From the NCBI GenBank assembly GCA_963789945.1, contig CAWBMN010000007.1:27178-91177 (forward strand): a stretch of 64,000 bases of DNA, read 5' to 3'. The position numbers were made by a program, and so were the translations under genes. Source of the DNA: an uncultured beta proteobacterium. GTDB lineage: Bacteria; Pseudomonadota; Gammaproteobacteria; Burkholderiales; JACQAP01. Position 1 is the first letter of the stretch. The number at the start of each line of letters is the position of its first letter. Positions 4,771 to 64,000 of the stretch are shown piece by piece. The notes beneath the pieces were generated by a model that was given only the letters and a program-made list of their open reading frames with translations, was not told the origin of the DNA and did no database searches.

Positions 4771-6003
4771 TTATGCCGCCCCTTCATAGACGATCAGCCA
4801 CTTGCCGCCTTCCTTGATCCAGTACTGGCGTTTCTTCATGCGGTTGGAGAGGTTGCTGCTGCCGTAGTCCTGCTCGAAGGTGGTGACAGCAATTTGTTCC
4901 TTGCCCGGATAGAGCAACAGGGACACGTCGGACAACTGGACCCTGATCCAGGCCTTGGAAGCGTTCACCTGGCGTTTCTGCTCCGACCACTGCTCCAGAG
5001 TGATGCCGTTGGAGGAGAATTGCCGGGCGTAATGCCGCAGGTACGTTTCGGTATCGCGGCTTTCCCAGTCGCGCCGCCAGCGCTCGATCGCGGTCAACAG
5101 ATCGGTTCGCAAAGCTTCGACCTCACCGGGACTGGCCCAGTCGAGCGTATCGGCGATCACCACCGGCGTGGACCCGATTTGCAGTTTGCGGGCGAGGGCT
5201 TCCAGATCGGCGTTGGCAAGAACGATGCAGCCGTCGCTGGCGCGAGGCGGCCGGCTGTAGGTGTCGCGCGGGGTTCCGTGCAGCCAGATTCCGTAGCCGT
5301 CACGACCGCGAACGCGGTCCCACTCGTTCGGATAGTTGATGGGGAATGCGCCGCTGCCGTAGAAATCGGTGAGTTTTTCCCTGGGCAACTGGCTGACCAC
5401 ATGGTAAACGCCGATTGGCGTGCGCTTGTCGCCTTCGCGCAGTTTTTCCAGCCCGTTCTTGCCGATGGTCACGTAATAGTCGGCCACGTAACGTGCCGCG
5501 CCGCCGGCATTCTCGAACACGAACAGGGTCGATTTGGCCGAGTCGAGGACCAGTGCGTACTTCTGTTCTTGCGGCATTTGCAGCAGGTATCGCGGCGCAA
5601 GCTCGCCCGGATTCTCGATCTGATAGCGCATCAGGCGTGCACGCGCCTCCTCTCGCAAACCGTTCACCTGCTCGGACGGGCCGCCCGAAGCGTTGCCGAT
5701 GCTGTTGATCGGGCGGGAACGCGCGAGCAGCAGGTCTCCTCTCACCAGCTGCGCCAGGCGGAAATTAGGGTTCGACGCCAGCAGATTGTCGATCTGTTCG
5801 AGTGCGGAGGAGAATCGCCTCTCACCTATGTCCAGCATCGCCCGCACCAGCATCGCCTCGGGTGCAGCGAGCTGGCGTGCGACGACCGACGGCGGGCCCA
5901 GCCCCATCGCCCAGGCATACGATGCACCGGCCGTGGCGATTACCACCAGCGCCTGCACCAGTGTCTGCCTCGAACCCGCCTGATGTCGGCGTGACGGGGA
6001 CAT
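4771..6003 (-). CDS. L,D-transpeptidase (YkuD-type) with a C-terminal NTF2-like domain
   Basis: 410 aa with an N-terminal signal/anchor. Catalytic region GIWLHGTP...RASDGCIVL (His/Cys motif). The start overlaps the stop of the upstream TPR gene by 1 nt. Confidence 0.85.
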
Positions 6004-6977
6004 CAGTTCATTCTTTCCTGAAAGATCAACCAGCGGTCATTGTTTTTCGTGAGAACCAGCGTCTTGGCGCCGGAAGTGCTCAGAGTGTCGGACTTGTAAC
6101 CCTGACGAAAGCTCACGATGGCCTGGCCATTCGCATCAAAGGAAACCTTGGGCGAGCCTACCGTGACCTCGATCGATATCGGTTTGGTGATGCGATCGCG
6201 CCGCATGGCCTCCCAAGCCGCGCGCGGTTCGCCGCCCGGTACCTGGAAACCGGGCGCGTAGTGGGCGAGGTAGGCATCCGCATCCTTCGCCGACCAGGCT
6301 TTGGCCCAGCCATTCACGGCAGCGAGCACGGCCTCGGTTTCCGCCTTGCCCGGTGCAGGCGACTTCGGCGACGGCTGTTTCTTGTCCTTTGCGTCGGATA
6401 TCACGGCGGGGGCAACCGCGGATTCGGTTGCAACCACCGGCGACTTGCCCTTGCCCGGCACCACGCTGCTCGAGAACAGGTCCTTTATCATCGCCAGCTT
6501 GGTTTGCGCGGCGGCATTGCCGCGGTCGAGTTGCAGCGCCTTATCGTAGGCTTCACTCGCCATCTTGGCGTACACGTCGCCGAGATTCTCGTGCGCGATG
6601 GCGTAGCTCGGATGCGTGCGGATCGCCATTTCCAGCGACTTGCGCGCCTTGTCGTACTGCCCCTGCGAGGCATACAGGACGGCAAGATTGTTATAGGGTT
6701 CGGGCAATTCCGGATAGTCGTCGGTCAGGGCCGTGAATACCTTGATCGCGTCGTTCGGTTTGTTCTGCTCGGTGAGGATCAATCCTTTGAGGAAGCGTGC
6801 GCGCGCGTCGCGCGGATTCACGGTGATCGCGCCCTCGATTTTTTCCAGCGCGGCCGTATGGTTGCCCTGCTTGAATAAACGGCTGGCGTCGTCGTAGTTG
6901 TCGGCGGCCGCCGGTGCGCACTGCAATGCAAGTGCGAGCAGTGCGGCACCCAGCGCTGGGGATTGCAATCGGCTCAT
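6003..6977 (-). CDS. secreted TPR-repeat protein with the same C-terminal domain as the adjacent L,D-transpeptidase
   Basis: Signal peptide MSRLQSPALGAALLALALQCAPAAA, then TPR repeats (AIKVFTALTDDYPE..., NLAVLYASQGQYDKA...). C-terminal region W..AW..KD.DAYL.HYA. Confidence 0.8.
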   Translation of the reverse strand: MSRLQSPALGAALLALALQCAPAAADNYDDASRLFKQGNHTAALEKIEGAITVNPRDARARFLKGLILTEQNKPNDAIKVFTALTDDYPELPEPYNNLAVLYASQGQYDKARKSLEMAIRTHPSYAIAHENLGDVYAKMASEAYDKALQLDRGNAAAQTKLAMIKDLFSSSVVPGKGKSPVVATESAVAPAVISDAKDKKQPSPKSPAPGKAETEAVLAAVNGWAKAWSAKDADAYLAHYAPGFQVPGGEPRAAWEAMRRDRITKPISIEVTVGSPKVSFDANGQAIVSFRQGYKSDTLSTSGAKTLVLTKNNDRWLIFQERMN

Positions 6978-7126
6978 GTGCTAAACTTTACCTCAATAAG
7001 AAACGGTAGGTTATTGTAAATAATAGTAGATTCTATCAGTAGGGCGCCCCGTTCGACAATCCGACTGCGCCCGGGGCCTGCTGGCCCGTTTGGCGGCACC
7101 ATGCACCCGACCCGGAATGAATCCCG

Positions 7127-8494
7127 ATGCTGAAGATTTATAACTCGCTCACCCGCGCCAAGGAGACTTTTACCCCGATTTCCCCCGGAAAGGTGGGAAT
7201 GTACGTGTGCGGGATGACGGTCTACGACTACTGCCACCTTGGCCACGCGCGCTTCATGGCGGTGTTCGATCTGGTCAAGCGCTGGCTGGTCGCGAGCGGC
7301 TTCGAAACTACGTATGTGCGCAACATTACCGACATCGACGACAAGATCATCAAGCGTGCCGCCGAGAACAACGAACCCATCGAGAAATTGACCACCCGTT
7401 TCATCGAAGCGATGAACCAGGACGCGGCTGCGCTCGGCGTGCAGAAGCCCGATGTCGAACCGCGCGCAACCGCCAATGTTCCGGAGATGGTGCGGCTTAT
7501 CGCCGCGCTGATCGACAGGACCCTGGCCTACCAGGCGCCGAACGGCGACGTTTATTACTCGGTGCACAGATTCCCCGGCTACGGCAAGTTATCCGGCAAG
7601 ACGCTGGACGAACTGCGTGCCGGCGAGCGCGTGGAAGTCGATGGCAGCAAGCGTGATCCGCTCGACTTCGTGCTGTGGAAATCGGCGAAGCCGGGCGAGC
7701 CGGCCTGGGATTCGCCCTGGGGCAAGGGGCGGCCCGGATGGCACATCGAGTGCTCGGCGATGAGCGAACGCTACCTCGGCAGCCACTTCGACATCCACGG
7801 CGGCGGCCAGGACTTGCAGTTTCCGCACCACGAGAACGAGATCGCCCAGTCGGAGGGCGCGCACGGGCACACGTTCGTGAACTACTGGATGCACAACGGA
7901 TTCGTGCGCGTGGACAACGAGAAGATGTCGAAGTCGCTCGGCAATTTCTTCACCGTGCGCGAAATCCTGGCGAAGTACGACGCAGAAGTGGTGCGCTTTT
8001 TCATCGTGCGCGCGCACTATCGCAGCCCGCTTAACTACTCCGACCAGCACCTGGATGACGCGAGGGGAGCTCTGACCAGGCTATATACAGCGCTCAAAAG
8101 CGTGCCCGCGAGAGCGGCGAACATCGACTGGAACAATCCCCAAGCCGCGCGATTTCGCGAAGCGATGAACGACGACTTCAATAGCCCGGAAGCGGTTGCG
8201 GTGCTGTTCGACCTTGCCAACGAAGTCAATCGCAGCCAGTCCTCGAGCGCGGCCGCGCTGCTCAAGTCGCTTGGCGCAGTGCTTGGCCTGCTGCAACGCA
8301 ATCCGGAAGAATTTCTGCGCGGCGATCTGCCCGACGGCTGGACCGTGGCACGGATCGAAGAAATGATCGCGGCGCGTGCGCGAGCAAAGCAGGCCAGGAA
8401 TTTCGCCGAGTCCGACCGCATCCGCGACGAACTGCTCGCAGCCGGGATCGTGCTCGAAGACGGGCCCGCGGGCACGACCTGGCGCCGCAAGTAA
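7127..8494 (+). CDS. cysS: cysteine--tRNA ligase
   Basis: 455 aa. HIGH motif (CHLGHAR), KMSKS motif (KMSKSLGN) and a zinc-site region with WHIECS. Confidence 0.97.
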
Positions 8495-51935: not shown

Positions 51936-51987
51936 GCGTGAGGGGTGAGGAGTGAGGGGAAGACCCCTTACTCCTCAATCCTTACCA
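51936..51987. repeat. IR9: tight GTGAGGR-type hairpin between nuoI and nuoJ
   Basis: GAGGAGTGAGGGG (51947-51959) - AAGA - CCCCTTACTCCTC (51964-51976) gives 13 bp: 12 Watson-Crick plus 1 G:T. Flanked by further units (GCGTGAGGGGT... / ...AATCCTTACC). Confidence 0.8.
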
Positions 51988-51995
51988 ACAAGAAC

Positions 51996-52766
51996 ATGGA
52001 TTTCAAGACCGGCGTCTTTTATTTCTTCGCGGCCATGCTGGTGTTCGCCGCGCTGCGCGTCATTACCGCGCGCAATCCGGTGCATTCTGCCCTTTTCCTG
52101 GTGCTGGCGTTCTTTACCGCCGCGGCGCTGTGGGTGCTGCTCGAGGCCGAGTTTCTCGCCATCGCGCTGGTGCTGGTCTACGTCGGTGCGGTGATGGTGC
52201 TGTTCCTGTTCGTGGTGATGATGCTCGACATCAACCTCGACCGATTGCGCGAGGGCTACTGGGACTACCTGGTGCCGGCGCTGATCGTGGCGGGCGTGAT
52301 GGTGGCGGAAATGGCGATCATCCTCGGCGCCCGCTACTTTGACCTCGAGGGCATGCCGGCGCCCGAGCCCAGGGGCGGGGACTACAGCAACACACGCGAG
52401 CTCGGCCTCCTGATCTATACCGACTACGTCTATCCGTTCGAGATCGCCGCGGTGATCCTGCTGGTGGCGATCGTCGCCGCCATCGCCCTGACGCTGCGCC
52501 ATCGCAAGGACACCAAGTACATCGACGCTGCGAAGCAGATCAACATCCACCGCAAGGACCGCGTGCGGTTGGTGTCGATGCCGTCGGAAAGCAAGGATGA
52601 AGGCAGGATGAAGGATGAAGGCGGAAGAAAAATTCAAACGTGGGGAAGCGCGGTAGTGCACGCGGAAAGCCAGGCATCGGATTGTTCCGGCCTCTGTGGT
52701 TCGGCGTTTCACTTCATCCTTCATCCTTCATCCTTCATCCTTTCGACGCCCGGAGGGCGGCGATGA
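51996..52766 (+). CDS. nuoJ: NADH-quinone oxidoreductase subunit J, carrying an about 57-codon C-terminal extension that reads through repeat IR10
   Basis: Start at ATG 51996 ([15 protein letters not shown]...). Conserved core to about ...[11 protein letters not shown]. The frame then stays open through IR10 to TGA 52764-52766, which overlaps the nuoK ATG (ATGA). Confidence 0.85.
52593..52742. repeat. IR10: GGATGAA-type inverted repeat inside the 3' end of the nuoJ ORF
   Basis: Left arm AAGGATGAAGGCAGGATGAAGGATGAAGGCGG. Right arm CACTTCATCCTTCATCCTTCATCCTTCATCCTT. The 85-nt spacer contains a solo CTCTGTGGTT (52692-52701) of the IR4/IR5 family. Confidence 0.8.
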
Positions 52767-53068
52767 TCTCCCTCTCCCACTACCTCATTCTTGGCGCCGT
52801 GCTGTTCGCGATCAGCGTGGTGGGCATCTTTTTGAACCGCAAGAACGTGATCATCCTGCTGATGGCGATCGAGCTGATGCTGCTGGCGGTGAACATGAAT
52901 TTCGTCGCCTTTTCGCATTTCCTGCAGGACAGCGCCGGTCAGGTATTCGTGTTTTTCATCCTCACCGTGGCGGCGGCCGAGTCGGCAATCGGTCTGGCGA
53001 TCCTGGTGGTGCTGTTCCGCAATGTTCGCACCATCAACGTCGACGATCTGGACAAGTTGAAAGGATGA
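52763..53068 (+). CDS. nuoK: NADH-quinone oxidoreductase subunit K
   Basis: Start at ATG 52763 with GGAGGG 6 nt upstream. 101 aa, 3 [14 protein letters not shown]...[14 protein letters not shown]. Confidence 0.93.
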
Positions 53069-53071
53069 AAA

Positions 53072-53155
53072 GCGTGAGGAGAGAGGAGTTAGCGGTGAGG
53101 AAAGCAAAACCTGGGGTGAGTTTGCCCCTCACCCCTCACTCCTTACCCCTTACGC
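53072..53155. repeat. IR11: GTGAGGA/GGGGTGA-type inverted repeat between nuoK and nuoL
   Basis: GCGTGAGGAGAGAGGAGTTAGCGGTGAGG ... GGGGTGAG-tttgccc-CTCACCCC TCACTCCTTACCCCTTACGC. The inner 8-bp stem is perfect; the outer arms are imperfect. Confidence 0.65.
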
Positions 53156-53165
53156 ACTTGGATCC

Positions 53166-55127
53166 ATGAAAAGCCTCTACCTCATCGTCCCTCTCGCCCC
53201 GCTTGCCGGCGCGCTGATTGCCGGCCTGCTGGGCTGGCTGATCGGCCGTCGTGCCACGCACTGGGTGGCGATCACCGGCATGACGGTGTCAACCATCGCA
53301 GCCTTTCTGGTGTTTCGCGACGTGCTCGCCGGCAACACGTTCGACGAACCGATCTATACCTGGATCACCACCGGTGACATTTCGCTGGAAATCGGATTCC
53401 TGATCGACCGATTGTCGGCCACCATGATGCTGGTCGTAACTTTCGTCTCGCTGATGGTGCACATCTACACCATTGGCTACATGGCGGACGATCCCGGCTA
53501 CCAGCGCTTCTTTTCCTACATTTCCCTCTTCACCTTCTCGATGCTTATGCTGGTGATGAGCAACAATTTCCTGCAGCTGTTCTTCGGCTGGGAAGCGGTG
53601 GGCCTGGTTTCCTATCTGCTGATCGGCTTCTGGTACGCGCGCCCGAGCGCGATCTATGCCAGCCTCAAGGCCTTCCTGGTCAATCGCGTCGGAGATTTGG
53701 GTTTTCTGCTTGGGATCGCACTGATTTTCGTGTTCTGCGGTTCGCTGGAATACGCGCAGGTTTTCTCCCGCGCGCCGGAGCTGACCGGCGAGACGGTGGA
53801 AATGGCCTACGTCGGCTGGCCGCTGCTTACCACCATCTGCATCCTGCTGTTCATCGGCGCGATGGGAAAATCGGCGCAGTTTCCGCTGCACGTCTGGCTG
53901 CCGGACTCGATGGAGGGCCCGACGCCGATCTCGGCACTGATTCATGCCGCCACCATGGTAACCGCGGGCATTTTCATGGTGGCGCGCATGTCGCCGCTGT
54001 TCGAGTTGTCGGAAACGGCGCTGTCGTTCGTGATGGTGATCGGCGCAATCACCGCATTGTTCATGGCGCTGGTGGCAGTGGTGCAGAACGATATCAAGCG
54101 GGTGGTGGCCTATTCGACGCTGTCGCAACTCGGTTACATGACCGTGGCGCTCGGCGCCTCGGCCTACGCCGGGGCCATATTTCACCTGGTCACCCACGCC
54201 TTTTTCAAGGCGCTGTTGTTCCTCGGCGCCGGCTCGGTGATCATCGCCCTGCACCACGAGCAGGACATGCGCAGGATGGGCGGTTTGAGGAAGTACATGC
54301 CGATCACCTACGCCACCATGCTCATCGGTGCTGTGGCAAGCGCGGGCATTCCCGGTTTCTCCGGTTTCTTTTCCAAGGACGCGATCATCGAGGCCGTGCA
54401 TCTGTCGCAATTGCCGGGCAGCGGTTTTGCCCACTTCTGTGTGCTGTCATGCGTGTTCGTCACAGCGTTCTATACCTTCCGGCTGTTTTTCATGACTTTC
54501 CACGGCAAGGAGCGTTTCGAAGTTCACGCTGGCGATCACGGACACGCGCAGGGCCACGTACCCCACGAGTCCCCCTGGGTGGTCACCGTGCCGCTGGTGG
54601 TCCTGGCGGTGCCGACGATCTGTGCCGGGTGGGTGATCGGGACGGTGCTGTTCGGCGGCTTCTTCGGCGATGCCATCGTGGTTGCCAGATCACACGACGT
54701 GCTCGCGCAGCTGGGCGGGGATTTTCACGGCGTGATGGCGATGATGGCGCACGCGCTGGCCACCTGGCCGTTGTGGCTTGCGGTTGCCGGCATTGCCGGC
54801 GCGGCCTGGTTGTATCTCAGGCCCACCGACCTGCCGGACAAGTTTCGGCAGTGGTTCTCGCCGCTCTATACGCTTCTCGAGCAGAAGTACTATTTCGACC
54901 GTTTCAACGACTGGTTCTTTGCAGGCGGTGCGCGCCTGGTCGGGCGCGGGTTGTGGAAAGGCGGCGATGTCGCTGTGATCGACGGCTTCGTCAACGGTGC
55001 CGCAACGCTGGTCGGCTGGCTGGCGACTGTCGTGCGCAAACTCCAATCCGGATATGTCTATACCTACGCCTTCGCCATGATCATTGGCATGGTGACCCTG
55101 CTTACGCTCTGGTTTGCCCGAAGCTGA
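53166..55127 (+). CDS. nuoL: NADH-quinone oxidoreductase subunit L
   Basis: 653 aa polytopic antiporter-like subunit. WEAVGLVSYLLIGFW...GKSAQFPLHVWLPDSMEGPTP. Confidence 0.96.
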   Translation: MKSLYLIVPLAPLAGALIAGLLGWLIGRRATHWVAITGMTVSTIAAFLVFRDVLAGNTFDEPIYTWITTGDISLEIGFLIDRLSATMMLVVTFVSLMVHIYTIGYMADDPGYQRFFSYISLFTFSMLMLVMSNNFLQLFFGWEAVGLVSYLLIGFWYARPSAIYASLKAFLVNRVGDLGFLLGIALIFVFCGSLEYAQVFSRAPELTGETVEMAYVGWPLLTTICILLFIGAMGKSAQFPLHVWLPDSMEGPTPISALIHAATMVTAGIFMVARMSPLFELSETALSFVMVIGAITALFMALVAVVQNDIKRVVAYSTLSQLGYMTVALGASAYAGAIFHLVTHAFFKALLFLGAGSVIIALHHEQDMRRMGGLRKYMPITYATMLIGAVASAGIPGFSGFFSKDAIIEAVHLSQLPGSGFAHFCVLSCVFVTAFYTFRLFFMTFHGKERFEVHAGDHGHAQGHVPHESPWVVTVPLVVLAVPTICAGWVIGTVLFGGFFGDAIVVARSHDVLAQLGGDFHGVMAMMAHALATWPLWLAVAGIAGAAWLYLRPTDLPDKFRQWFSPLYTLLEQKYYFDRFNDWFFAGGARLVGRGLWKGGDVAVIDGFVNGAATLVGWLATVVRKLQSGYVYTYAFAMIIGMVTLLTLWFARS

Positions 55128-55142
55128 GGACGGGAAGACATC

Positions 55143-56624
55143 ATGTTCGGACTGCCCTACCTGAGCACCGTCATTTGGCTGCCGATCCTTGCCGGCATAG
55201 CGGTGCTTTTCACCGGCTCGGACCGCCATGCCAACGCCGCCCGCTGGCTGGCGCTCGCCGGCGCCGTTGGCGGCCTCGTGGTTGCGCTGCCGCTCTACTC
55301 CGGATTCGACCCCGGCACACCGGGGATGCAGTTCGTGGAGTTGATGCCCTGGATCGAGTCCTACAGTGTCAACTATCACCTCGGTATCGACGGTGTTTCG
55401 CTCCTGATGATCCTGCTCAACTGTTTCACCACCGTGCTGGTGGTGCTGGCGGGATGGCAGGTGGTGCAGAGCCGGGTGGCCCAGTACATGGCAGCCTTCC
55501 TGATCCTTTCCGGGATCATGAACGGTGTGTTCTGCGCGCAGGATGCCGCGCTGTTCTATGTCTTTTTCGAGGCGACGCTGATCCCGATGTTCATCGTCAT
55601 CGGCGTATGGGGAGGGCCGAACCGGGTTTATGCAGCGCTCAAGTTTTTCCTCTACACACTGGTCGGATCGCTGCTGACCCTGATTGCATTCATCTATCTG
55701 TACGTTGCCTCCGAGGGCAGTTTCGCACTGGCCGACTACTACCGCCTGCCGATTCCTCTGGGCACCCAGATCCTGTTGTTCATTGCCTTCTTTGCCGCGT
55801 TTGCGGTCAAGGTGCCGATGTTCCCGGTACATACGTGGTTGCCCGATGCGCATGTCGAGGCACCCACCGGCGGTTCCGTGGTGCTGGCAGCCGTGATGCT
55901 GAAGCTTGGTGCCTACGGTTTCATCCGGCTGTCGCTGCCGATTCTGCCGGATGCCAGCCACGTGGCTGCCCCGGTCGTCATCGGCTTGTCGCTGATCGCG
56001 GTGGTGTATATCGGAGTAGTGGCACTGGTGCAGACCGACATGAAGAAGCTGATCGCCTATTCCTCGATTTCGCACATGGGATTCGTGACGCTGGGCATTT
56101 TCCTGTTCAACGACCACGGCATGGAAGGGGCGGTAATCCAGATGGTCTCGCACGGCTTCGTTTCCGGCGCGCTTTTCCTGTGCGTCGGCGTCCTGTACGA
56201 CCGCATGCACTCGCGTTTGATCGCCGACTACGGCGGGGTGGTGAACCGGATGCCGGTATTTGCCGCCTTCTTCGTTCTGTTCGCGATGGCCAATTCCGGT
56301 TTGCCGGGCACCAGCGGATTTGTCGGCGAGTTCCTGGTGATTCTGGGGACGATGGAGGAGAACTTCTGGTACGCAGTCGCAGCGGCGAGCACGCTGCTGT
56401 TCGGCGCCGCCTATACACTGTGGATGATCAAGCGCGTCGTTTTCGGCCCGGTGGCCAACGGCAAGGTTGCAGCTTTGACAGACATCACGCTGCGCGAGCG
56501 CTTGGTGCTCGGCCTGGTCGCGATCGCGGTGCTGGCGATGGGGCTATATCCCCAGCCGTTCGCCGCGGTGCTGCATACCTCGGTCAACGAACTCCTGACG
56601 CTGGCAAACCAGAGCAAATTATGA
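55143..56624 (+). CDS. nuoM: NADH-quinone oxidoreductase subunit M
   Basis: 493 aa antiporter-like subunit. FAVKVPMFPVHTWLPDAHVEAPT. Confidence 0.96.
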   Translation: MFGLPYLSTVIWLPILAGIAVLFTGSDRHANAARWLALAGAVGGLVVALPLYSGFDPGTPGMQFVELMPWIESYSVNYHLGIDGVSLLMILLNCFTTVLVVLAGWQVVQSRVAQYMAAFLILSGIMNGVFCAQDAALFYVFFEATLIPMFIVIGVWGGPNRVYAALKFFLYTLVGSLLTLIAFIYLYVASEGSFALADYYRLPIPLGTQILLFIAFFAAFAVKVPMFPVHTWLPDAHVEAPTGGSVVLAAVMLKLGAYGFIRLSLPILPDASHVAAPVVIGLSLIAVVYIGVVALVQTDMKKLIAYSSISHMGFVTLGIFLFNDHGMEGAVIQMVSHGFVSGALFLCVGVLYDRMHSRLIADYGGVVNRMPVFAAFFVLFAMANSGLPGTSGFVGEFLVILGTMEENFWYAVAAASTLLFGAAYTLWMIKRVVFGPVANGKVAALTDITLRERLVLGLVAIAVLAMGLYPQPFAAVLHTSVNELLTLANQSKL

Positions 56625-56629
56625 AAACA

Positions 56630-56740
56630 GGGCCGAGGGACGAGGATCGAGGGACGAGGGAAATGCAAAATCGCGCCGTTGCGCTTAGTGCTTGTCCCTC
56701 GATCCTCGTCCCTCGGCCCTCACCCCTCGCCCCACGTCCC
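56630..56740. repeat. IR12: GAGGGAC-type inverted repeat with 26-bp perfect arms between nuoM and nuoN
   Basis: GGGCCGAGGGACGAGGATCGAGGGAC (56630-56655) is the exact reverse complement of 56694-56719. The 38-nt spacer is followed by more C-rich units (CTCACCCCTCGCCCCACGTCCC). Confidence 0.9.
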
Positions 56741-56747
56741 TGAATTT

Positions 56748-58205
56748 ATGGAATACGAGATTCCCGATTTCCTGCTGGCCGCCCCCGAGATCGTCCTGCT
56801 GACAATGGTCTGCGTCATTCTGATCGTGGACCTGTTTCTGTCCGATGCCCGCCGGGTCTGGACCTATGCGCTGAGCCAGTTGTCGCTGATCGGTACCGCG
56901 GTGCTGGTGTTCGTCATGGGCGGGGAGGACGTCGCCTACACGTTCAACGGCATGTTCGTGGACGACCCGATGGCGAACGTGCTCAAGATCGCAGTCTGCC
57001 TGACCGTGGCCGTCATGCTGGCCTACTCGCGCGCCTACGTTGCCGCGCGCGACATGTATCGCGGGGAATTCTTTGTGCTTTCGCTGTTCGCCACGCTAGG
57101 CATGATGGTGATGATTTCGGCGAACCACTTCCTGGTGCTTTACCTGGGGCTGGAGCTGCTGTCGCTGTCCTTGTATGCCATGGTGGCGCTGCCGCGCGAC
57201 GCCGGCAACAGCACCGAGGCGGCGATGAAATACTTCGTGCTGGGCGCGCTGGCCTCGGGCATGCTGCTCTACGGCATGTCGATGATCTACGGCGCCACCG
57301 GTTCGCTGGAGGTCACCGAAGTGGCGCAGCGCATTTTCGACGGCGAGGCCATTCCGACCATCCTGATTTTCGGGCTGGTATTCGTGGTTGCCGGTATCGG
57401 CTTCAAGCTTGGCGCCGTGCCGTTCCACATGTGGGTGCCGGACGTCTATCACGGCGCGCCGACAGCGGTGACGCTGCTGATCGGAACCGCGCCCAAGCTG
57501 GCGGCATTCGCGTTCATCATGCGTCTGCTGGTCGAGGCGCTTGGCATGCAGCAATTGCTGGTCGAGTGGCAGCAGATGCTGGTGCTGCTGGCGGTGGCTT
57601 CGCTCGCCATCGGAAACATCACGGCAATAGCCCAGACCAACCTGAAGCGAATGCTGGCCTATTCGACCATTTCGCACATGGGTTTCCTGCTGCTCGGCAT
57701 CCTCAGCGGCACGGTCGAGGGATTCGGCGCGGCCATGTTCTACACCGTCATTTATGTGCTGATGGCCCTGGGCACTTTTGGCATGATCCTGCTGCTGTCG
57801 CGCCAGGGCTTCGAAGCGGAGAACCTGGATGACTTCAAGGGGCTTAACCAGCGCGACCCTTGGTACGCTTTCATCATGATGCTGCTGATGTTCTCAATGG
57901 CGGGCATCCCGCCCACCATGGGATTTTGGGCCAAGCTGTTCGTACTCCAGGCGGTACTGTCGGTGGGTTACTTGTGGCTCGCGGTGGTGGCTGTGCTGTT
58001 CTCGTTCATCGGCGCGTTTTACTATCTGCGTGTGGTCAAGCTGATGTACTTCGATACGCCGACCGACGCGGCGCCAATCGAGCCGCATGGCGACATCCGG
58101 GTTCTGATGTCCGTAAACGGCCTCGCGGTGCTGGTATTCGGGTTGGCGCCGGCCTCGCTCCTGGCCATATGCGAACGCGCGATACAGCTTTCCCTGTCCC
58201 AGTGA
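56748..58205 (+). CDS. nuoN: NADH-quinone oxidoreductase subunit N
   Basis: Start at ATG 56748 (MEYEIPDF...), 485 aa. [22 protein letters not shown]. The ORF-track start at 56679 would translate IR12. Confidence 0.93.
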
Positions 58206-58750
58206 GCACCGATTTCACCGAGAAGAAGGTTTCCTCGCAGCAGGTCTATCACGGCCGCTTGCTGCAGGTGAATGAGGACGAGGTCACGTTGCCGGACGGC
58301 AGCCACGCGCGGCGCGAATACGTCCTGCATCCCGGAGCCGCCTTGATCCTGCCGGTTTTCGACGACGGTTCGGTGCTGCTCGAGCGCCAGTTCCGCTATC
58401 CGGCCGGTGGCCATTTCTACGAACTGCCCGCTGGAAAGCTTGAGCCAGACGAGCCGCCGCTGGAAACCGCCAGGCGCGAGCTTCAGGAGGAGACGGGTTA
58501 TGTGGCGGCCGAGTGGCGCGAGCTCGGCCGCTTGCATCCCTGTGTCGGATATTCCAACGAGACCATCGACTTTTTCCTGGCACGCAAGCTTGAATTCAAG
58601 GGCGCGCAACTCGACGAAGGCGAGTTCCTGGAGACGTTGCGCTTGCCGCTTGCCGAGGGTCTGGACTGGATTCGGCGCGGGCGCATCAGCGACACTAAAA
58701 CCATTCTCGGCCTGTTTTGGGCCGAGAAGATCCTCAGGGAAACCTGGTAG
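58202..58750 (+). CDS. Nudix hydrolase (ADP-ribose pyrophosphatase-like)
   Basis: GTG start at 58202 overlaps the nuoN stop. 182 aa with Nudix box [23 protein letters not shown]. Confidence 0.8.
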
Positions 58751-58765
58751 AAGTTCCCGGCCGGT

Positions 58766-60718
58766 TCAGGCCAGCATGGCTGTCTGTTGCTCCGCGCCGG
58801 TTTCTGCCGGAAAGGGTTGCGGGTGCCCGAACACGAAACCCTGGCCGTACAGCACGCCCATCTCGGTGAGGATGTTCAAGACTTCCTGGTTCTCGACCCA
58901 TTCGGCGATCACCTGCTTGTTGAGGCCCTTCGCCACGTCGCACAACGCGCGTACGAACAGGCGATTGGCTTCATCGGTTGCCAGACCGCGTATGAAATTG
59001 CCGTCGATCTTCAGGTAGTCCACCTCGAAGCGCTTGAGGAAATAGAACGAGCTGAACCCCGCGCCGAAATCGTCGAGCGCGAAACGGCAGCCCAGTTTCT
59101 TCATCTGCGCGATGAACTCCTGTGTGACGCCCACTTCCGCCATTGCCGCGGTTTCCGTGATCTCGAACACCAGTTGATCGTGGTCCACTGGTGCGGCCGC
59201 GAGCATGGCATGGAATCGCCGCACCCACTGCTGGTCGGAGAGGCTCACTCGCGACAGGTTTACGAAGTAACGAATCTTCTTGCCGCGCATATGCGGTTGC
59301 TTCAGGATTTCCAGAACCTTGGCGACCACGCGCAGATCGATTTCCTGGACCATGCCGAGCGACTCTGCCACTTCGATGAACTGTCCCGGTAGGACGATAT
59401 TGCCGCTGCGGTCGAGGATTCGTACCAGCACTTCGTGGTGGACCAGTTGCCGGTCCGCCAGCCTGACCACCGGCTGCGAGTAGAGCAAAACGCGGTCCTC
59501 GTCCAGCACTTCGCGCAGTTCCCGCGCCCAGTGCACACGCCGGTGGGTGCTGCGCAGGTCGTCGGGATTGTGATCGTGCAGCACGAAACGGTTGCGGCCG
59601 TTGTCCTTCGCCTGGTACATGGCGATGTCCACATTGGCGAGCAGCGAGGCCACGTCATTGCCGTGGAACGGATAGGACACCACGCCGGCCGAGGCGGTCA
59701 ACGTCGACAGGCAGCCCTGATCGCCCAACCGGAACTTGTAGTGGCGCACCGCGGTGAGCGCGCGTTCGGCGACCTGCGCGGCCTCGGCGCGCAGCGCATC
59801 TGGAAGATGCAGCGCGAACTCGTCGCCGCCCAGGCGGAAAACCTGTGCGTTCTCGTCTTTCACCACGTCCTTGAGTAGTCCACCGATGCCGACGATCAAC
59901 TGGTCGCCGGCACGATGGCCGAAGTTGTCGTTGATGTACTTGAAGTGATCGACGTCCAGAAGCAGTACCGAACCTTTTTCGCCTTCTGCGAGCGCGGCCT
60001 CCAGCGCTTTCTGCAGCGAGACCCGGTTGGGCAGGCCGGTAAGCGTATCGTGGGTGGCAAAGCGTTCGATTTCGAGCGCCGCCTTGTGCTGCTCGGTGAC
60101 GTTGCGGGCGGTGCCGCGCAGCCCGATGATCGCGCTGTTGTCGTCATAGGTGGCGCGCGCATTGATTCCCACCCAGCGGTCGTTGCCGTCGGCGGAAATG
60201 AGGTGGGTGAGGTAGTTCTTTACCTGTCCGTTTCTACGCAGCGTGGACAGGAAGCGGCGGTTGGAAACATGGGCAAGGCCGGCTTCGAAGTCGAAAAAGC
60301 AGCGGCCGATCAGGTCCTTCTGCTGCAATCCAAAGATGTCCACGCAGCCGTTGTTGAGGTAGGTGAAGCGGCCCAGCGCATCGGTGGTCCAGATCAGGTC
60401 GTGCGAAGTCTCCACCAGGTCGCGGTAGCGCGACTCGCTCTCCAGCAGCAGTTGAATGATGCGGCGCTTTTCCTTGAGCGTCCTGCGCACTGCCGCCAGT
60501 TCGTCTTCGTATTTCTCGGTTTCGTGCTTGTCGCTGCCGCCCATCAGCGCCGAACCGGCCAGGCCGTCGATAATCTCGCGCGCATAACGCCGGTGACCGC
60601 CGTCGGTGCGCCGGGCCACGAGCACGCCCTGCGAGTCCCAGCGTCTGAGTTTCTGCACTGGGACGCCGAGCAGTGCAGCGGCTTCCTGAATCGAGTATTC
60701 GGGAAGTTCGTGCGCCAT
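58766..60718 (-). CDS. MerR-type HTH / coiled-coil / PAS / GGDEF / EAL protein (RpfR-like candidate DSF receptor)
   Basis: Start taken at ATG 60718 (MAHELPEY...), 650 aa. HTH YSIQEAAALLGVPVQKLRRWDSQGVLVARRTDGGHRRY. PAS (SRYRDLVETSHDLIWTTD...). Intact GGDEF (RLGGDEFAL). EAL signatures (EVLVR, DDFGAGFSS, KIDG, AEWVE, QGF). Confidence 0.85.
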   Translation of the reverse strand: MAHELPEYSIQEAAALLGVPVQKLRRWDSQGVLVARRTDGGHRRYAREIIDGLAGSALMGGSDKHETEKYEDELAAVRRTLKEKRRIIQLLLESESRYRDLVETSHDLIWTTDALGRFTYLNNGCVDIFGLQQKDLIGRCFFDFEAGLAHVSNRRFLSTLRRNGQVKNYLTHLISADGNDRWVGINARATYDDNSAIIGLRGTARNVTEQHKAALEIERFATHDTLTGLPNRVSLQKALEAALAEGEKGSVLLLDVDHFKYINDNFGHRAGDQLIVGIGGLLKDVVKDENAQVFRLGGDEFALHLPDALRAEAAQVAERALTAVRHYKFRLGDQGCLSTLTASAGVVSYPFHGNDVASLLANVDIAMYQAKDNGRNRFVLHDHNPDDLRSTHRRVHWARELREVLDEDRVLLYSQPVVRLADRQLVHHEVLVRILDRSGNIVLPGQFIEVAESLGMVQEIDLRVVAKVLEILKQPHMRGKKIRYFVNLSRVSLSDQQWVRRFHAMLAAAPVDHDQLVFEITETAAMAEVGVTQEFIAQMKKLGCRFALDDFGAGFSSFYFLKRFEVDYLKIDGNFIRGLATDEANRLFVRALCDVAKGLNKQVIAEWVENQEVLNILTEMGVLYGQGFVFGHPQPFPAETGAEQQTAMLA

Positions 60719-60780
60719 CGCACGCCTCGTACTTATTTGCTGCCGGTTGGTCGGGCCGGCAATCCCAACTCGCCGGCGCA

Positions 60781-61743
60781 TTAGTGCAGGAGCTTGGCGA
60801 CGCCAGGTTCGTCCTGGCGCGCGCCCGTGGCGGTTAGGTCGTTCTGCCGCGACACCAGCCGCTGCATCAGCTTGAGATCGCGATGACTTAAGTTCAGCGC
60901 CGTGTCGACCCACACCTCGACCACACCCACCAGTTCCTCGTAGTCGAGCTTGTGGACACGCCTGCGCGCTGCGGCAATGCCGGCCATCGCATTGCGGCTG
61001 CGGCTGCGGGTGCGGGACCGGATGAAGCTGGCGATTTCCGCTTCACCCCGGCCCTGTTCCACGACCAGATCCACCACCCCCACCGCCAGCATATCATCGG
61101 CGCTGTAAATCTTGCCACTGGTGATCAGGTTCTCGGTTGCACGCTTGCCCACTTTGCGCTCCAGGAAGGAATAGGCCCCCATGCCCGGAAACAGGTTGAA
61201 CAGGATCTCCGGAAAACCGAAGCGCGCCTGGCGCTCCGCGATCAGCACGTCGGACGACAACGCGGCCTCGAAGCCGCCGCCCAGACATTCGCCCTGGATC
61301 AGCGAGATCGTGGTGATCGGCAATTCATGGCCGATGTAATTGCGGTAAAGGACATCCACGCAGGCCTTGCCGTAACCGAGCAGGCCGTCCCGGTCCTGAT
61401 TGTTGATCAGCCTGGTGAACAGGCTGAGGTCGCCGCCGAGGTTGAACACCCCGGGGACCCTGGACGCCAGGACCGCGTATTCGACCGGTTTACTTTCACC
61501 GCCACAGTCCACTTCGCCGCCGGTACGGGTGATGAATCGGCAGTAGCGGTCCAGGTCGCGCAGCAGCTCCGGATTGAAATTGGGCCTGGGCGTCGGATTC
61601 CAGCGCAACCACATTGCGTGTTGTTCTCTGTCGAAAAAGGCGGAAAGCTGTTCCGAGAAGAAGTACTCGGCCGCTGCCCCGGCAGGCTCGGCGCCAGTCG
61701 ATGCCGGGACCTGTAGCAGTTCCTGTGGAATATTCATGTCCAT
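60781..61743 (-). CDS. rpfF: crotonase-fold DSF-family signal synthase (RpfF-like)
   Basis: 320 aa. From memory it aligns block by block with Xanthomonas RpfF: VFNLGGDLSLF, LGGGFEAALSS (first catalytic Glu), FPEILFNLFPGMGAYSF (second Glu), VWVDTALNLSHRDLKLMQRLV. AGGAGA lies 8 nt upstream of the ATG. Confidence 0.8.
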   Translation of the reverse strand: MDMNIPQELLQVPASTGAEPAGAAAEYFFSEQLSAFFDREQHAMWLRWNPTPRPNFNPELLRDLDRYCRFITRTGGEVDCGGESKPVEYAVLASRVPGVFNLGGDLSLFTRLINNQDRDGLLGYGKACVDVLYRNYIGHELPITTISLIQGECLGGGFEAALSSDVLIAERQARFGFPEILFNLFPGMGAYSFLERKVGKRATENLITSGKIYSADDMLAVGVVDLVVEQGRGEAEIASFIRSRTRSRSRNAMAGIAAARRRVHKLDYEELVGVVEVWVDTALNLSHRDLKLMQRLVSRQNDLTATGARQDEPGVAKLLH

Positions 61744-62080
61744 TTTCTGTCTCTCCTGTGCGAGTGGATTTAGTTTGCTTTTCAGGCCGCCACAGGACCC
61801 CCCCCATTGCGGCTTGCGATTTGACTGTAGTCGAATACACAGGTAAATAGCAAATCTAACACTTTGATAGATTTAATTATTCCGCTTTGTTGTCAATAAT
61901 TTGGATGAGCTTGTCACTGTAAGACGACAAAAAATTTTGATCTTTTGCTTATTGGGGGCCGCAAACGAAGTGTGGATGAGCTTCAACAACGCCGTACAAA
62001 CGATGGATTTTGTTGACGTTCCGCTCGAGAAAGGCTAGAAAGGAAACCCATAAGAACTAGAGTTGCACGCTCGGTCCCCT
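61744..62080. promoter_or_regulatory. AT-rich divergent control region between rpfF and aas
   Basis: About 33% G+C by hand count over 61841-61960. Direct repeat TGGATGAGCTT at 61903 and 61972. Short inverted repeats TTGTC-N10-GACAA (61911-61930) and GACT-gt-AGTC (61823-61832). Confidence 0.5.
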
Positions 62081-64000
62081 ATGCGTCTCCTCCTCCGTTC
62101 CATTGCGCGGCTGTTTTTCCGCGTCAGGCTCGTCGGCGACCTGGCGCCGTTCGGCAATGCGGATCGGCTGCTGCTGGTCGCCAACCACCATTCGCGGTTC
62201 GACGCGGTGTTTCTGGCCCTGTTTCTGCCGCGCGCGCCGGTCATCGTCGTTCCGCCAGAGGAAACCCGTAGCCGGTGGATGCGCTGGGTGCTGGGGCACG
62301 TCGACCACGAAGTGCACGACCTGAATAATCCCCTGAGCATGAAACCGCTGCTGCGCTTGCTGCGCGGCGGACGCCCAGTGGTGCTGTTCCCGGAGGGGCG
62401 CATCGCGCGCAACGCCGCGGTGATGAAGGTGTACCCGGTACCCGCACTGATTGCGCTCAAGAGCGGCGCCGTGGTGCTGCCGGTGCACGTGGAAGGCGCC
62501 GGCCAGTGGTTCAGCCGCTCCGGATCTGCGTCGGTCATACGGCGGCTCCTTCCCTCCGTGACGGTGCGCGTGTTCGCGCCCACCCGGATTGACGGGGGTG
62601 CCGCCGGCAGCGCGCGCCGGCGGCGCGCCTTCGCCACCCGCAGGCTCACAGCCATCCTGCAGGCCATGGCGCTGGAATCGCACGCTTGCAAGCCTCTGTT
62701 CGAGTGCTTTCTCGACGCGGTCGCGGCGCATGGGCGCGGCGCCGTGCTGATGGAAGATCAAAACGAGGATCCGCAGACCTACGGCCAGTTTCTGCGCATG
62801 AGCCTGGCGCTGTCGCGGCTGCTCAGGCGTTTCACCAGCGAGGGCGAGAACGTCGGCCTGCTGCTTCCGAACATGGTCCCATCGGTGGGTGTGGTAATGG
62901 CCCTATCGGCGATGAAGCGCGTGCCGGCCATTTTCAATTACACGGCCGGTCCGCTGGGGGTGGAAAGTGCGCGGGTTGCGGCCGGTGTGCGCACCGTGAT
63001 CACTTCGCGCAAGTTCATCGAGCAGGCGCATCTGCAGGCCCTGCTGGATGTGCTTGCAGGATGCAACATCGTCTATCTCGAGGATTTGCGCCGCCAGTTC
63101 GGCTGGCGCGACAAATTGTGGTTGCTGGGATTCGCACTGCGCTTTCCGCGGCTGGTGATCGCCAGGCAGTCCACGCTCGATCCCGCGGTGGTGTTGTTCA
63201 CCTCAGGCTCGGAAGACCGGCCCAAAGGGGTGGTGCTTTCGCACCGTGCCATCGTCGCAAACGTGGCACAGATGCGCGCTGTGTTCGACTTCTCGCCCGA
63301 AGACAAGATCCTGAATCCGCTGCCGCTGTACCACGCCTACAGCTTCACCGCCGGCATCATGCTGCCGCTGATCACCGGCACGCGGCTTTACCTTTTCATC
63401 TCACCGCTGCGTTACCGCGCCATTCCCGAGATTGCTTACCGGCGCGATTGCACCATCCTGTTCGGAACCAGCACCTTCCTGTCGTTCTACGCGCGCTATG
63501 CCAATCCGACGGACTTCTGCCGGCTGCGCTACGTAATCTCCGGCGGCGAGAAGCTCTCGCCCGAGGTCGCAAGGGTGTGGATGGAGAAGTTCGGGTTGCG
63601 CATCCTGGAGGGCTACGGTTCGACGGAATGCGCGCCGGTAATTTCGCTGGCTACCCCATCGGCGTACCGCCGTAAAGCGGTGGGCCGATTCCTGCCCGGC
63701 ATCGATTACCAGATCGAGCCCATGGACGGTATCGACAAAGGGGGAGTCCTGCACATCCGCGGGCCTAACCTGATGCTGGGGTACTATCGCTATGCCAATC
63801 CCGGCGTGATCGAGGCGCCCAAGTCCGGCGTGGGCGAAGGCTGGTACGATACCGGCGACGTGGTGGAAGTGGACCAGGACGGCATGCTCAGCATCTCCGG
63901 GCGGGTGAAACGCTTTGCCAAGATCGCCGGCGAAATGGTGTCGCTCGACATGATCGAGCACGTGGCGCGCGAAGCTTCGTCCGAGCACCATCATGCCGCA
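62081..64000 (+). CDS. aas: bifunctional 2-acylglycerophosphoethanolamine acyltransferase / acyl-ACP synthetase, 3'-truncated by the window edge
   Basis: Not in the ORF track because there is no stop in the window; my own translation gives 640 codons open from ATG 62081. PlsC HX4D box (NHHSRFD), FPEGRI, AMP-binding TSGSEDRPKGV, EGYGSTECAP, WYDTGD, KRFAKIAGEMVSL. Colinear with E. coli Aas as I recall it. Confidence 0.85.
   Translation, partial: MRLLLRSIARLFFRVRLVGDLAPFGNADRLLLVANHHSRFDAVFLALFLPRAPVIVVPPEETRSRWMRWVLGHVDHEVHDLNNPLSMKPLLRLLRGGRPVVLFPEGRIARNAAVMKVYPVPALIALKSGAVVLPVHVEGAGQWFSRSGSASVIRRLLPSVTVRVFAPTRIDGGAAGSARRRRAFATRRLTAILQAMALESHACKPLFECFLDAVAAHGRGAVLMEDQNEDPQTYGQFLRMSLALSRLLRRFTSEGENVGLLLPNMVPSVGVVMALSAMKRVPAIFNYTAGPLGVESARVAAGVRTVITSRKFIEQAHLQALLDVLAGCNIVYLEDLRRQFGWRDKLWLLGFALRFPRLVIARQSTLDPAVVLFTSGSEDRPKGVVLSHRAIVANVAQMRAVFDFSPEDKILNPLPLYHAYSFTAGIMLPLITGTRLYLFISPLRYRAIPEIAYRRDCTILFGTSTFLSFYARYANPTDFCRLRYVISGGEKLSPEVARVWMEKFGLRILEGYGSTECAPVISLATPSAYRRKAVGRFLPGIDYQIEPMDGIDKGGVLHIRGPNLMLGYYRYANPGVIEAPKSGVGEGWYDTGDVVEVDQDGMLSISGRVKRFAKIAGEMVSLDMIEHVAREASSEHHHAA

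Follow-up and report, generated by a model that had tools for sequence, protein, structure and literature searches.

Can a single polypeptide carry a fatty-acid signal through the turnover of cyclic di-GMP (c-di-GMP) to DNA? The question is raised by a gene pair in a 64-kb stretch of contig CAWBMN010000007.1 from an uncultured beta proteobacterium (the window; coordinates are positions within it unless another locus is named), in which a 320-residue crotonase is followed on the same, minus strand by a 650-residue protein that joins a MerR-type helix-turn-helix (HTH) to PAS, GGDEF and EAL domains. A sequence-only reading of this DNA had taken the crotonase for an RpfF-type synthase of the diffusible signal factor (DSF) family and had proposed that its partner unites signal perception, c-di-GMP turnover and transcriptional output. 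Our analysis places the crotonase in the RpfF family. We are evenly divided over the larger model, in which the locus would be a DSF-type signal module comprising a self-contained, DNA-binding c-di-GMP trigger sensor, autoregulation through an upstream inverted repeat (the dyad), and recycling of the fatty acid by a neighboring Aas-type enzyme.

An RpfF-family crotonase and its MerR–PAS–GGDEF–EAL partner

The crotonase scores 345.5 bits on the NCBIfam model NF006452/PRK08788 (cut-off 177), the same model on which the validated RpfF of Burkholderia cenocepacia (chromosome-2 record L081) scores 412 bits; because the validated enzyme scores alike, we regard PRK08788 as the family of synthases of the Burkholderia diffusible signal factor (BDSF) and the window crotonase as one of its members. 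Both proteins fail the Xanthomonas RpfF equivalog NF053515 (cut-off 550), at 203.7 bits for the window crotonase and 188 bits for B. cenocepacia RpfF. The four best PDB matches of the crotonase are all RpfF, namely 5fus, 6dgn, 3m6m (E ~1e-51) and 7zq7 (E 7e-47), and the metabolic crotonases in the PDB reach just E 1e-15, with DspI (5wyb) at E 6e-13. The two catalytic glutamates read earlier in the motifs GGGFEAALS and FPEILFNLFPGMGAYSF are E159 and E179; in the alignment to 3m6m they fall on E141 and E161 of Xanthomonas RpfF (E157 and E177 in the chain numbering of that structure). In a neighbor-joining tree with E. coli PaaF as the outgroup, the crotonase family nests inside the RpfF-like clade and does not cluster with the metabolic hydratases. 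Pairwise identities are of one order throughout: 39.8% between the window crotonase and Xanthomonas (Xcc) RpfF, 35.5% between it and B. cenocepacia RpfF, and 38.7% between the two RpfF proteins. Homologues are annotated by JGI as ‘DSF synthase’, and the NCBI family name is only ‘crotonase/enoyl-CoA hydratase family protein’. Profile membership, structural matches, both glutamates and the position in the tree all uphold the RpfF-type claim, and the crotonase can be assigned on these sequence criteria, solidly and at the family level, to the RpfF/BDSF synthases. The closest crotonases from cultured organisms, on Sphingomonas and Methylobacterium plasmids, are ~46% identical by tblastn.

Both open reading frames (ORFs) lie where they had been read, on the minus strand and 62 nt apart. 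An AGGAGA Shine-Dalgarno sequence precedes the ATG of the crotonase; the partner starts at the ATG at 60718 (MAHELPEY), with GAGG 8 nt upstream, and ends at 58766. The full partner ORF spans 58766–60913, and its GTG-initiated version of 715 residues was rejected because it overlaps the crotonase gene and because homologues are conserved only from an E-Y-[ST]-I-Q-E motif onward. No terminator-like site was found in the 62-nt gap.

All domain calls on the partner exceed the Pfam curated cut-offs. MerR (PF00376) matches residues 9–45 with 46.3 bits (cut-off 28.2), and MerR_1 (PF13411; 37.5 bits, cut-off 21.6) and the excisionase profile HTH_17 (30.9 bits, cut-off 27) match the same N-terminus, in agreement with the MerR-type HTH that had been recognized there; GGDEF and EAL score 142 and 221 bits. 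The HTH signature QKLRRWD..GGHRRY is nearly invariant in the family, the PDB sequence matches of the HTH are CarH, LitR, TipA and BldC, and it is 42% identical over 45 residues to the HTH of E. coli MlrA; MerR HTHs are broadly alike, and the HspR and BldC models score similarly on it. An AlphaFold model of residues 1–215, of moderate confidence (predicted local distance difference test, pLDDT, 65), shows a winged HTH joined through one long helix (residues 64–104) to a PAS fold. The helix corresponds to what had earlier been called a coiled coil, and is presumed to serve in dimerization or signaling; behind it stands the PAS–GGDEF–EAL array, not the classical MerR C-terminal domain.

The GGDEF motif is intact and the I-site lacks RxxD (residues 288–291 are DENA), as had been noted; among 62 family members (56–93% identity) the GGDEF motif and the GTP and Mg sites are invariant, and the I-site position varies and is never RxxD. 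The EAL signatures, likewise all present as claimed, are invariant in the same 62 sequences: E429..R433, N487, E519xxE522, D549-D550, K570, E606/E609 and Q626. The best solved relative of the partner is RbdA/PA0861. When residues 1–215 were searched against 1.8 billion representatives, where multi-PAS proteins dominated the matches, the HTH–helix–PAS module was not found outside its own family; only members of that family, down to 49% identity, span both the HTH and the PAS domain.

The idea that the partner is a variant of RpfR did not survive. On NCBIfam NF007474/PRK10060 (cut-off 782) it reaches 277 bits, against 1162 for B. cenocepacia RpfR and 1338 for E. coli PdeR, and identity over the PAS–GGDEF–EAL core is 28% with RpfR and 30% with PdeR (545 residues for PdeR). 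The RpfF-interaction (FI) domain is missing, as the sequence-only reading had stated: residues 1–115 of RpfR match PdeR (44% identity, E 9e-29) and not the window protein (E 1.5). The partner is thus no orthologue of RpfR and belongs to a distinct PAS–GGDEF–EAL lineage; what it has in common with RpfR is a PAS–GGDEF–EAL core with intact motifs beside an rpfF-family gene. The supposed match in gene layout stood in part, in that the genes adjoin in both systems; their orientation differs, being co-directional here and convergent in B. cenocepacia (4944–5807 on the plus and 5856–8096 on the minus strand of L081).

A scan of one genome per species gave 67 loci with a partner homologue, a few of them clipped by contig ends, at 56–93% identity over the best matched segment. 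The crotonase gene lies directly upstream of the partner gene in 64 of the 64 loci that have upstream DNA, and nearly all carriers share the order divergent Aas-type gene, crotonase, partner, convergent NUDIX gene (Pfam) and nuoN. All carriers are metagenome-assembled genomes (MAGs), mostly labeled Burkholderiales or Betaproteobacteria, from soil and groundwater. In the most divergent member, locus L061, the aas–crotonase–partner trio is kept, and a Dus gene and a two-component system replace NUDIX and nuoN downstream. RpfF-family genes also pair independently with GGDEF–EAL proteins of other N-termini: in Burkholderia these are FI–PAS, and on plasmids of Sphingomonas and Methylobacterium they are hydrophobic membrane domains, with or without PAS_7. 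The trio kept in L061, the gap free of terminator-like sites and the recurrence of the RpfF/GGDEF–EAL pairing elsewhere strengthen the case that synthase and partner are coupled.

Some relatives carry an IS200/Y1-transposase-like gene (REP-associated, RAYT-type) between crotonase and partner, as at 5103–5891 of L043 and ~5000–5730 of L063; the insert widens the gap to ~0.9–1 kb and leaves both genes intact, and Pfam Y1_Tnp was confirmed for L043 only. A tblastn table had offered L071 as a second MerR–PAS–GGDEF–EAL lineage; it was rejected, the protein being dCache_3–GGDEF–EAL.

A candidate operator and an Aas-type neighbor

The intergenic region between the crotonase and the divergent Aas-type gene is AT-rich, as claimed (44.5% GC against ~62% across the window), and contains a 23-bp dyad, AAATCTATCA-AAG-TGTTAGATTT (10-3-10), which we regard as a candidate operator on the strength of its symmetry, conservation and position. 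Across 54 aligned aas–crotonase intergenic regions its consensus, AAATCTATCA-N3-TG(T/A)TAGATTT, is near-invariant while the flanks drift. The dyad is single copy in the window even at three mismatches (0 expected by chance), and each related locus has one. Its spacing is kept relative to the crotonase start (median 105 nt, standard deviation 23) and not relative to aas (median 193, standard deviation 46). The core half-sites lie ~11 bp apart, as expected of a dimeric HTH protein. In L061 the dyad is altered yet symmetric, AAACCTGACA-AAC-TGTCAAGTTT, and the partner carries a unique Q22Y substitution in the otherwise near-invariant recognition region; as a single event, this joint change is only suggestive.

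Two other readings of the dyad region were rejected against the consensus sequences: a sigma-54 -24/-12 promoter, for which the GG/GC spacing is wrong, and an IHF site, since WATCAANNNNTTR fits the window copy and the perfect-palindrome variants do not. The 5' leader of the crotonase (61765–61800, minus strand) holds a GC-rich hairpin with a G-run, GCCGC-AATGGGGGGGGTCCTGTG-GCGGC, conserved in the closest relatives only; a permissive Rfam search of 58600–62200, the leader hairpin included, matched no RNA family. A second, weaker inverted repeat, GAGCTTCAACAA / TTGTTGACGTTC with 83% complementarity, is found at 61978–62021, close to where the Aas-type gene starts; a partly conserved AACGTCAAC block overlaps it, and the repeat may be part of the promoter of aas.

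The dyad also occurs elsewhere. When metagenome contigs were scanned for exact matches, it was found, as AAAYCTATCA-N3-TGWTAGATTT, in at least 120 stretches (metagenome loci L087–L206). The contigs outside the locus have 50–67% GC and unrelated flanks, bar a few AT-rich ones that may be chance matches, which argues for a binding site and against a mobile repeat. Among the matches listed, the genes beside these dyads encode ABC exporters, PEP-CTERM proteins and a TIR-Sel1 protein. A hidden Markov model of the HTH, run against all ORFs of the dyad-bearing contigs listed, matched only where the partner gene was also present. These further copies may be a regulon of the fused protein or the sites of a different, widespread regulator.

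In ~9 contigs the dyad stands between a gene for a 1002-residue PAS–PAS–GGDEF–EAL protein and one for a 295-residue protein of the Haem_oxygenas_2/TENA family, a haem-oxygenase-like iron enzyme. An orthologue of the latter occurs without the dyad in the NCBI MAG DATNCW01, which is outside the 67 genomes with the partner. On a plasmid of Methylibium petroleiphilum an ‘iron-containing redox enzyme’ directly precedes an RpfF-like gene (L084 5210–5938). There are hints here that haem-oxygenase-like or iron enzymes are linked with RpfF-type chemistry.

The Aas-type product fuses Pfam Acyltransferase to AMP-binding, and its best NCBIfam match is PRK08043 (699 bits for the product as truncated by the window end), acyl-ACP--phospholipid O-acyltransferase / long-chain-fatty-acid--ACP ligase (ACP, acyl carrier protein). 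The gene adjoins the crotonase in every locus with enough upstream DNA, L061 included, a linkage as tight as that of partner and crotonase. In Xanthomonas, RpfB adjoins rpfF. Acyl-activating enzymes recur in DSF systems, a further one being the acyl-CoA ligase DsfR, a BDSF receptor in Burkholderia (PMC12838280), and for this reason a role in recycling or turnover is reasonable for the Aas-type enzyme.

In L061 the aas gene is followed by a FadL/TodX-type outer-membrane fatty-acid channel (1388–2719), not seen in the other loci; together these would make up a unit for taking up and activating fatty acids, divergent from the synthase–partner operon. The channel was rejected as a constant neighbor of aas, since it occurs in L061 only and HtpG follows aas in L002. 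On the far side of the pair, the plus strand carries long, strongly hydrophobic ORFs at 51945–58205, which from their translations we take to be the distal nuo (NADH dehydrogenase) operon ending in nuoN. A NUDIX hydrolase gene (58211–58750; Pfam NUDIX) then converges with the partner gene, and a terminator-like hairpin at 58704–58728 sits within its end, just past the partner stop codon.

Table 1. Coordinates of the features described, by position in the window or, in the last row, in other metagenome loci
Feature	Position	Strand	Basis
RpfF/BDSF-synthase-family crotonase, 320 aa, catalytic E159 and E179	60781..61743	-	NCBIfam, PDB alignment, neighbor-joining tree
MerR-HTH/long helix/PAS/GGDEF/EAL protein, 650 aa	58766..60718	-	Pfam, motif conservation, homologues
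MerR/excisionase-type winged HTH, residues 8–50	60569..60697	-	Pfam, family alignment
Predicted long helix linking HTH to PAS, residues 64–104	60407..60529	-	AlphaFold, moderate confidence
PAS, residues 97–205, with family-invariant H150-V-S-N153-R154-R155-F	60104..60430	-	Pfam, alignment to RpfR PAS
GGDEF domain, residues 221–377, motif at 297–301	59588..60058	-	Pfam, family alignment
EAL domain, residues 399–633, all catalytic signatures	58820..59524	-	Pfam, family alignment
AT-rich divergent intergenic region	61744..62080	.	Sequence
23-bp dyad, candidate operator	61852..61874	.	Inverted repeat, conservation, position
Putative weak sigma-70 promoter, TTGCTA, 18 nt, TACAGT; -35 overlaps right arm of dyad	61824..61853	-	Reading by eye and alignment
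Aas-type gene, divergent, leaving the window at its end	62081..64000	+	Translation, Pfam, NCBIfam
PAS–PAS–GGDEF–EAL/dyad/haem-oxygenase-like arrangement	L103 2266–6540; also L092, L177, L099, L116, L172, L181, L112, L121		

The proposed signal module and its alternatives

The model that we propose is a three-gene fatty-acid signaling module, vertically inherited in an uncultured Burkholderiales lineage. By analogy with RpfF/Bcam0581, the crotonase would dehydrate 3-hydroxyacyl-ACP, hydrolyze the thioester and free a cis-2-unsaturated fatty acid, a synthesis that we infer because the enzyme belongs to this family and has both catalytic glutamates. Its co-transcribed cytoplasmic partner would be a c-di-GMP turnover enzyme with conserved GGDEF and EAL sites and no product-inhibition site, its activity presumably controlled by the PAS domain through the sensing of the fatty acid or a related cue. 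The MerR-type HTH would let the same dimer bind DNA, and the protein would then be a ‘trigger’ enzyme whose DNA-binding output is set by its ligand and by c-di-GMP occupancy. One chain would thus merge the roles of PdeR and MlrA in E. coli and of RpfR and GtrR in Burkholderia, with a parallel in PdeL, where the HTH is of LuxR type. The dyad abutting the -35 would most likely be the operator, allowing the autoregulation of both signal synthesis and receptor level. The Aas-type enzyme would re-activate the free fatty acid to acyl-ACP or phospholipid, comparable to RpfB in offsetting the thioesterase activity of RpfF and turning the signal over.

In its strongest form the proposal makes a single polypeptide the receptor of a DSF-family fatty acid, an enzyme of c-di-GMP turnover and a direct binder of AAATCTATCA-N3-TGWTAGATTT, at its own operon and at a regulon of dozens of promoters. 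We consider this doubtful, and distinctly so; if true, such a regulon in soil Burkholderiales would take in ABC exporters, PEP-CTERM proteins and a haem-oxygenase-like enzyme beside another GGDEF–EAL gene, and one protein would house a complete quorum-signal-to-transcription pathway, with an operator code that can be read.

Several observations weigh against the module, beginning at the dyad. Its placement differs from that of a classical MerR operator, which lies between the -35 and -10 elements with a 19–20-bp spacer: the dyad here is upstream of the putative -35, which it overlaps, and the putative spacer measures 18 nt. A consensus sigma-70 scan found no promoter above threshold here, and the promoter read by eye is weak. 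Among the matches listed, 52 dyad-bearing stretches carry the crotonase, aas or the partner, and at least 68 carry none of them, none of these with a MerR HTH alongside. With copies in so many unrelated contexts, the dyad may be bound by another regulator that is itself widespread. It is quite possible, although we lean the other way, that the module is real and its dyad belongs to such a factor, with the fused HTH binding another sequence or serving only to dimerize or to contact a partner. The half-site TCTATCA, which to our eye resembles a TetR operator half-site, would suit a different regulator. Against this explanation, no other regulator gene is conserved at the locus; across the family hardly any variation is seen in the dyad or in the HTH recognition region, and both change in L061, albeit in that single event. 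Moreover, the other dyad contexts belong to the biofilm or c-di-GMP type, and could themselves be targets of the fused protein.

Further doubts attach to the PAS domain and to the linkage of the pair. The residues of Cronobacter RpfR that contact BDSF are S169, N172, Y183, R187 and N202 (PMC6361424). In B. cenocepacia numbering they are S168, N171, Y/F182, R186 and N201, and in the window protein they map, approximately given the low identity of the alignment, to H150, N153, G164, N168 and D180, with only N153 of the five kept; judged by these positions the PAS domain is probably not RpfR-like. No RpfR chain appeared among the PDB sequence matches or the best 50 Foldseek matches, and the Foldseek search of the AlphaFold model of residues 1–215 against the PDB returned generic LOV/PAS folds, so the fold search does not identify the ligand. 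C125, C140, H106, H150 and H172 are invariant in 29 close relatives (74–93% identical), a pattern compatible with a cofactor or redox sensor. Linkage, too, argues less than it might: nuoN and NUDIX are as syntenic as the crotonase–partner pair, and because the whole neighborhood is syntenic, synteny is weak evidence of functional coupling; every carrier, moreover, is an uncultured MAG.

These points would fit a pair that are neighbors by vertical inheritance only, with a PAS domain that senses an unrelated cue (redox, flavin or haem, oxygen) and not the crotonase product, an explanation that we think unlikely. The genes are co-directional with a 62-nt gap, and they are retained together down to 56% identity and in the changed context of L061; the pairing of an RpfF-like protein with GGDEF–EAL recurs in three unrelated architectures. 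None of the 53 PDB sequence matches at E<=1 is a LOV chain, and the LOV motif GXNCRFLQ is absent from the sequence. The invariant cluster H150/N153/R154/R155 is located where RpfR contacts the carboxylate, and we suggest, tentatively and from sequence, that the invariant motif to which it belongs could be a carboxylate-binding site.

That the crotonase and the Aas-type enzyme are a lipid-remodeling or housekeeping pair (acyl-ACP dehydratase/thioesterase plus re-activation) with no diffusible signal is very improbable: the non-committal NCBI family name, the aas linkage as tight as that of the partner, and the RpfF-like genes found in a non-signaling-looking setting on a Methylibium plasmid (between an iron-containing redox enzyme and ferritin) and on an E. 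coli plasmid (among ABC-transporter, FtsX-like permease and lipoprotein-sorting genes and hypothetical proteins) would be in keeping with it, but acyl-activating enzymes are themselves part of known DSF systems, the crotonase is apparently co-transcribed with a signaling enzyme and not with lipid-synthesis genes, and of the two validated members that bracket it in the tree, each produces a signal fatty acid of the cis-2 type (PMC12838280).

Returning to the signal module, its interest is that DSF signaling and c-di-GMP gene control are normally joined through separate proteins: RpfR with GtrR, PdeR with MlrA, and RpfC/RpfG with Clp. A MerR HTH naturally fused to PAS–GGDEF–EAL beside the synthase supplies a ‘Rosetta-stone’ argument that such partnerships are direct. 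The module would amount to a minimal, portable system of one synthase, one sensor-effector and one operator, in which to study how promoter occupancy follows from ligand and c-di-GMP occupancy, and its parts are small enough for heterologous expression. Its confinement to abundant uncultured Burkholderiales of soil and groundwater points to fatty-acid quorum sensing in a group without an experimental model; the pairs of cultured Sphingomonas parapaucimobilis and Methylobacterium could act as culturable models.

Comparison with known systems

We found no literature description of a MerR-HTH–PAS–GGDEF–EAL protein together with RpfF, in line with the earlier suspicion that the variant has not been characterized. 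The nearest system by synthase is RpfF/RpfR of B. cenocepacia and Cronobacter, which shares a PRK08788 synthase with its catalytic glutamates, an adjoining cytoplasmic PAS–GGDEF–EAL protein with both motifs intact, and an expected transcriptional output. It differs in that a MerR HTH and a long helix here take the place of the FI domain, four of the five BDSF-contact residues are changed, and the genes are co-directional where those of Burkholderia converge. Burkholderia RpfR reaches DNA through a separate regulator, GtrR (PMC12838280).

The rpfB-rpfF-rpfC-rpfG cluster of Xanthomonas likewise sets an RpfF-family synthase beside a gene for a fatty-acid-activating AMP-ligase (rpfB there, Aas-type here), and its output, c-di-GMP degradation, can be likened to that of the system described here. 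Sensing in Xanthomonas is by the membrane hybrid kinase RpfC and the HD-GYP regulator RpfG. The ligase here differs in carrying a fused acyltransferase, and its predicted target is ACP, not CoA. The pairs on large plasmids of S. parapaucimobilis (L082 6820–8778) and Methylobacterium (L083 6853–9183) share an RpfF-like gene directly beside a GGDEF–EAL gene; there the two genes are convergent, the partners have hydrophobic N-termini with or without PAS_7 and no HTH, and the systems are uncharacterized.

The functionally closest precedents are two ‘trigger’ phosphodiesterases, PdeR with MlrA and PdeL. E. coli PdeR (YciR), of the RpfR family, controls the MerR-like activator MlrA by direct contact (PMC5052742). 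The PdeR–DgcM–MlrA system thus also couples a PAS–GGDEF–EAL enzyme to a MerR-like HTH, although through separate interacting proteins and with no DSF synthase involved, where the window protein is one chain that lacks the MlrA C-terminal domain. PdeL (YahA), like the window protein, carries an HTH and an EAL domain in a single chain; its HTH is of LuxR type, sits on an active EAL domain and binds, in a c-di-GMP-sensitive manner, an imperfect palindrome upstream of its own promoter, through which it autoregulates (PMC5052742). By comparison, the HTH of the window protein is of MerR type and its dyad is a candidate site only, and PdeL has neither PAS, GGDEF nor a linked signal synthase. Viewed against these precedents, the window protein looks as if both halves of a PdeR/MlrA-type module had been fused and put under a DSF-type synthase.

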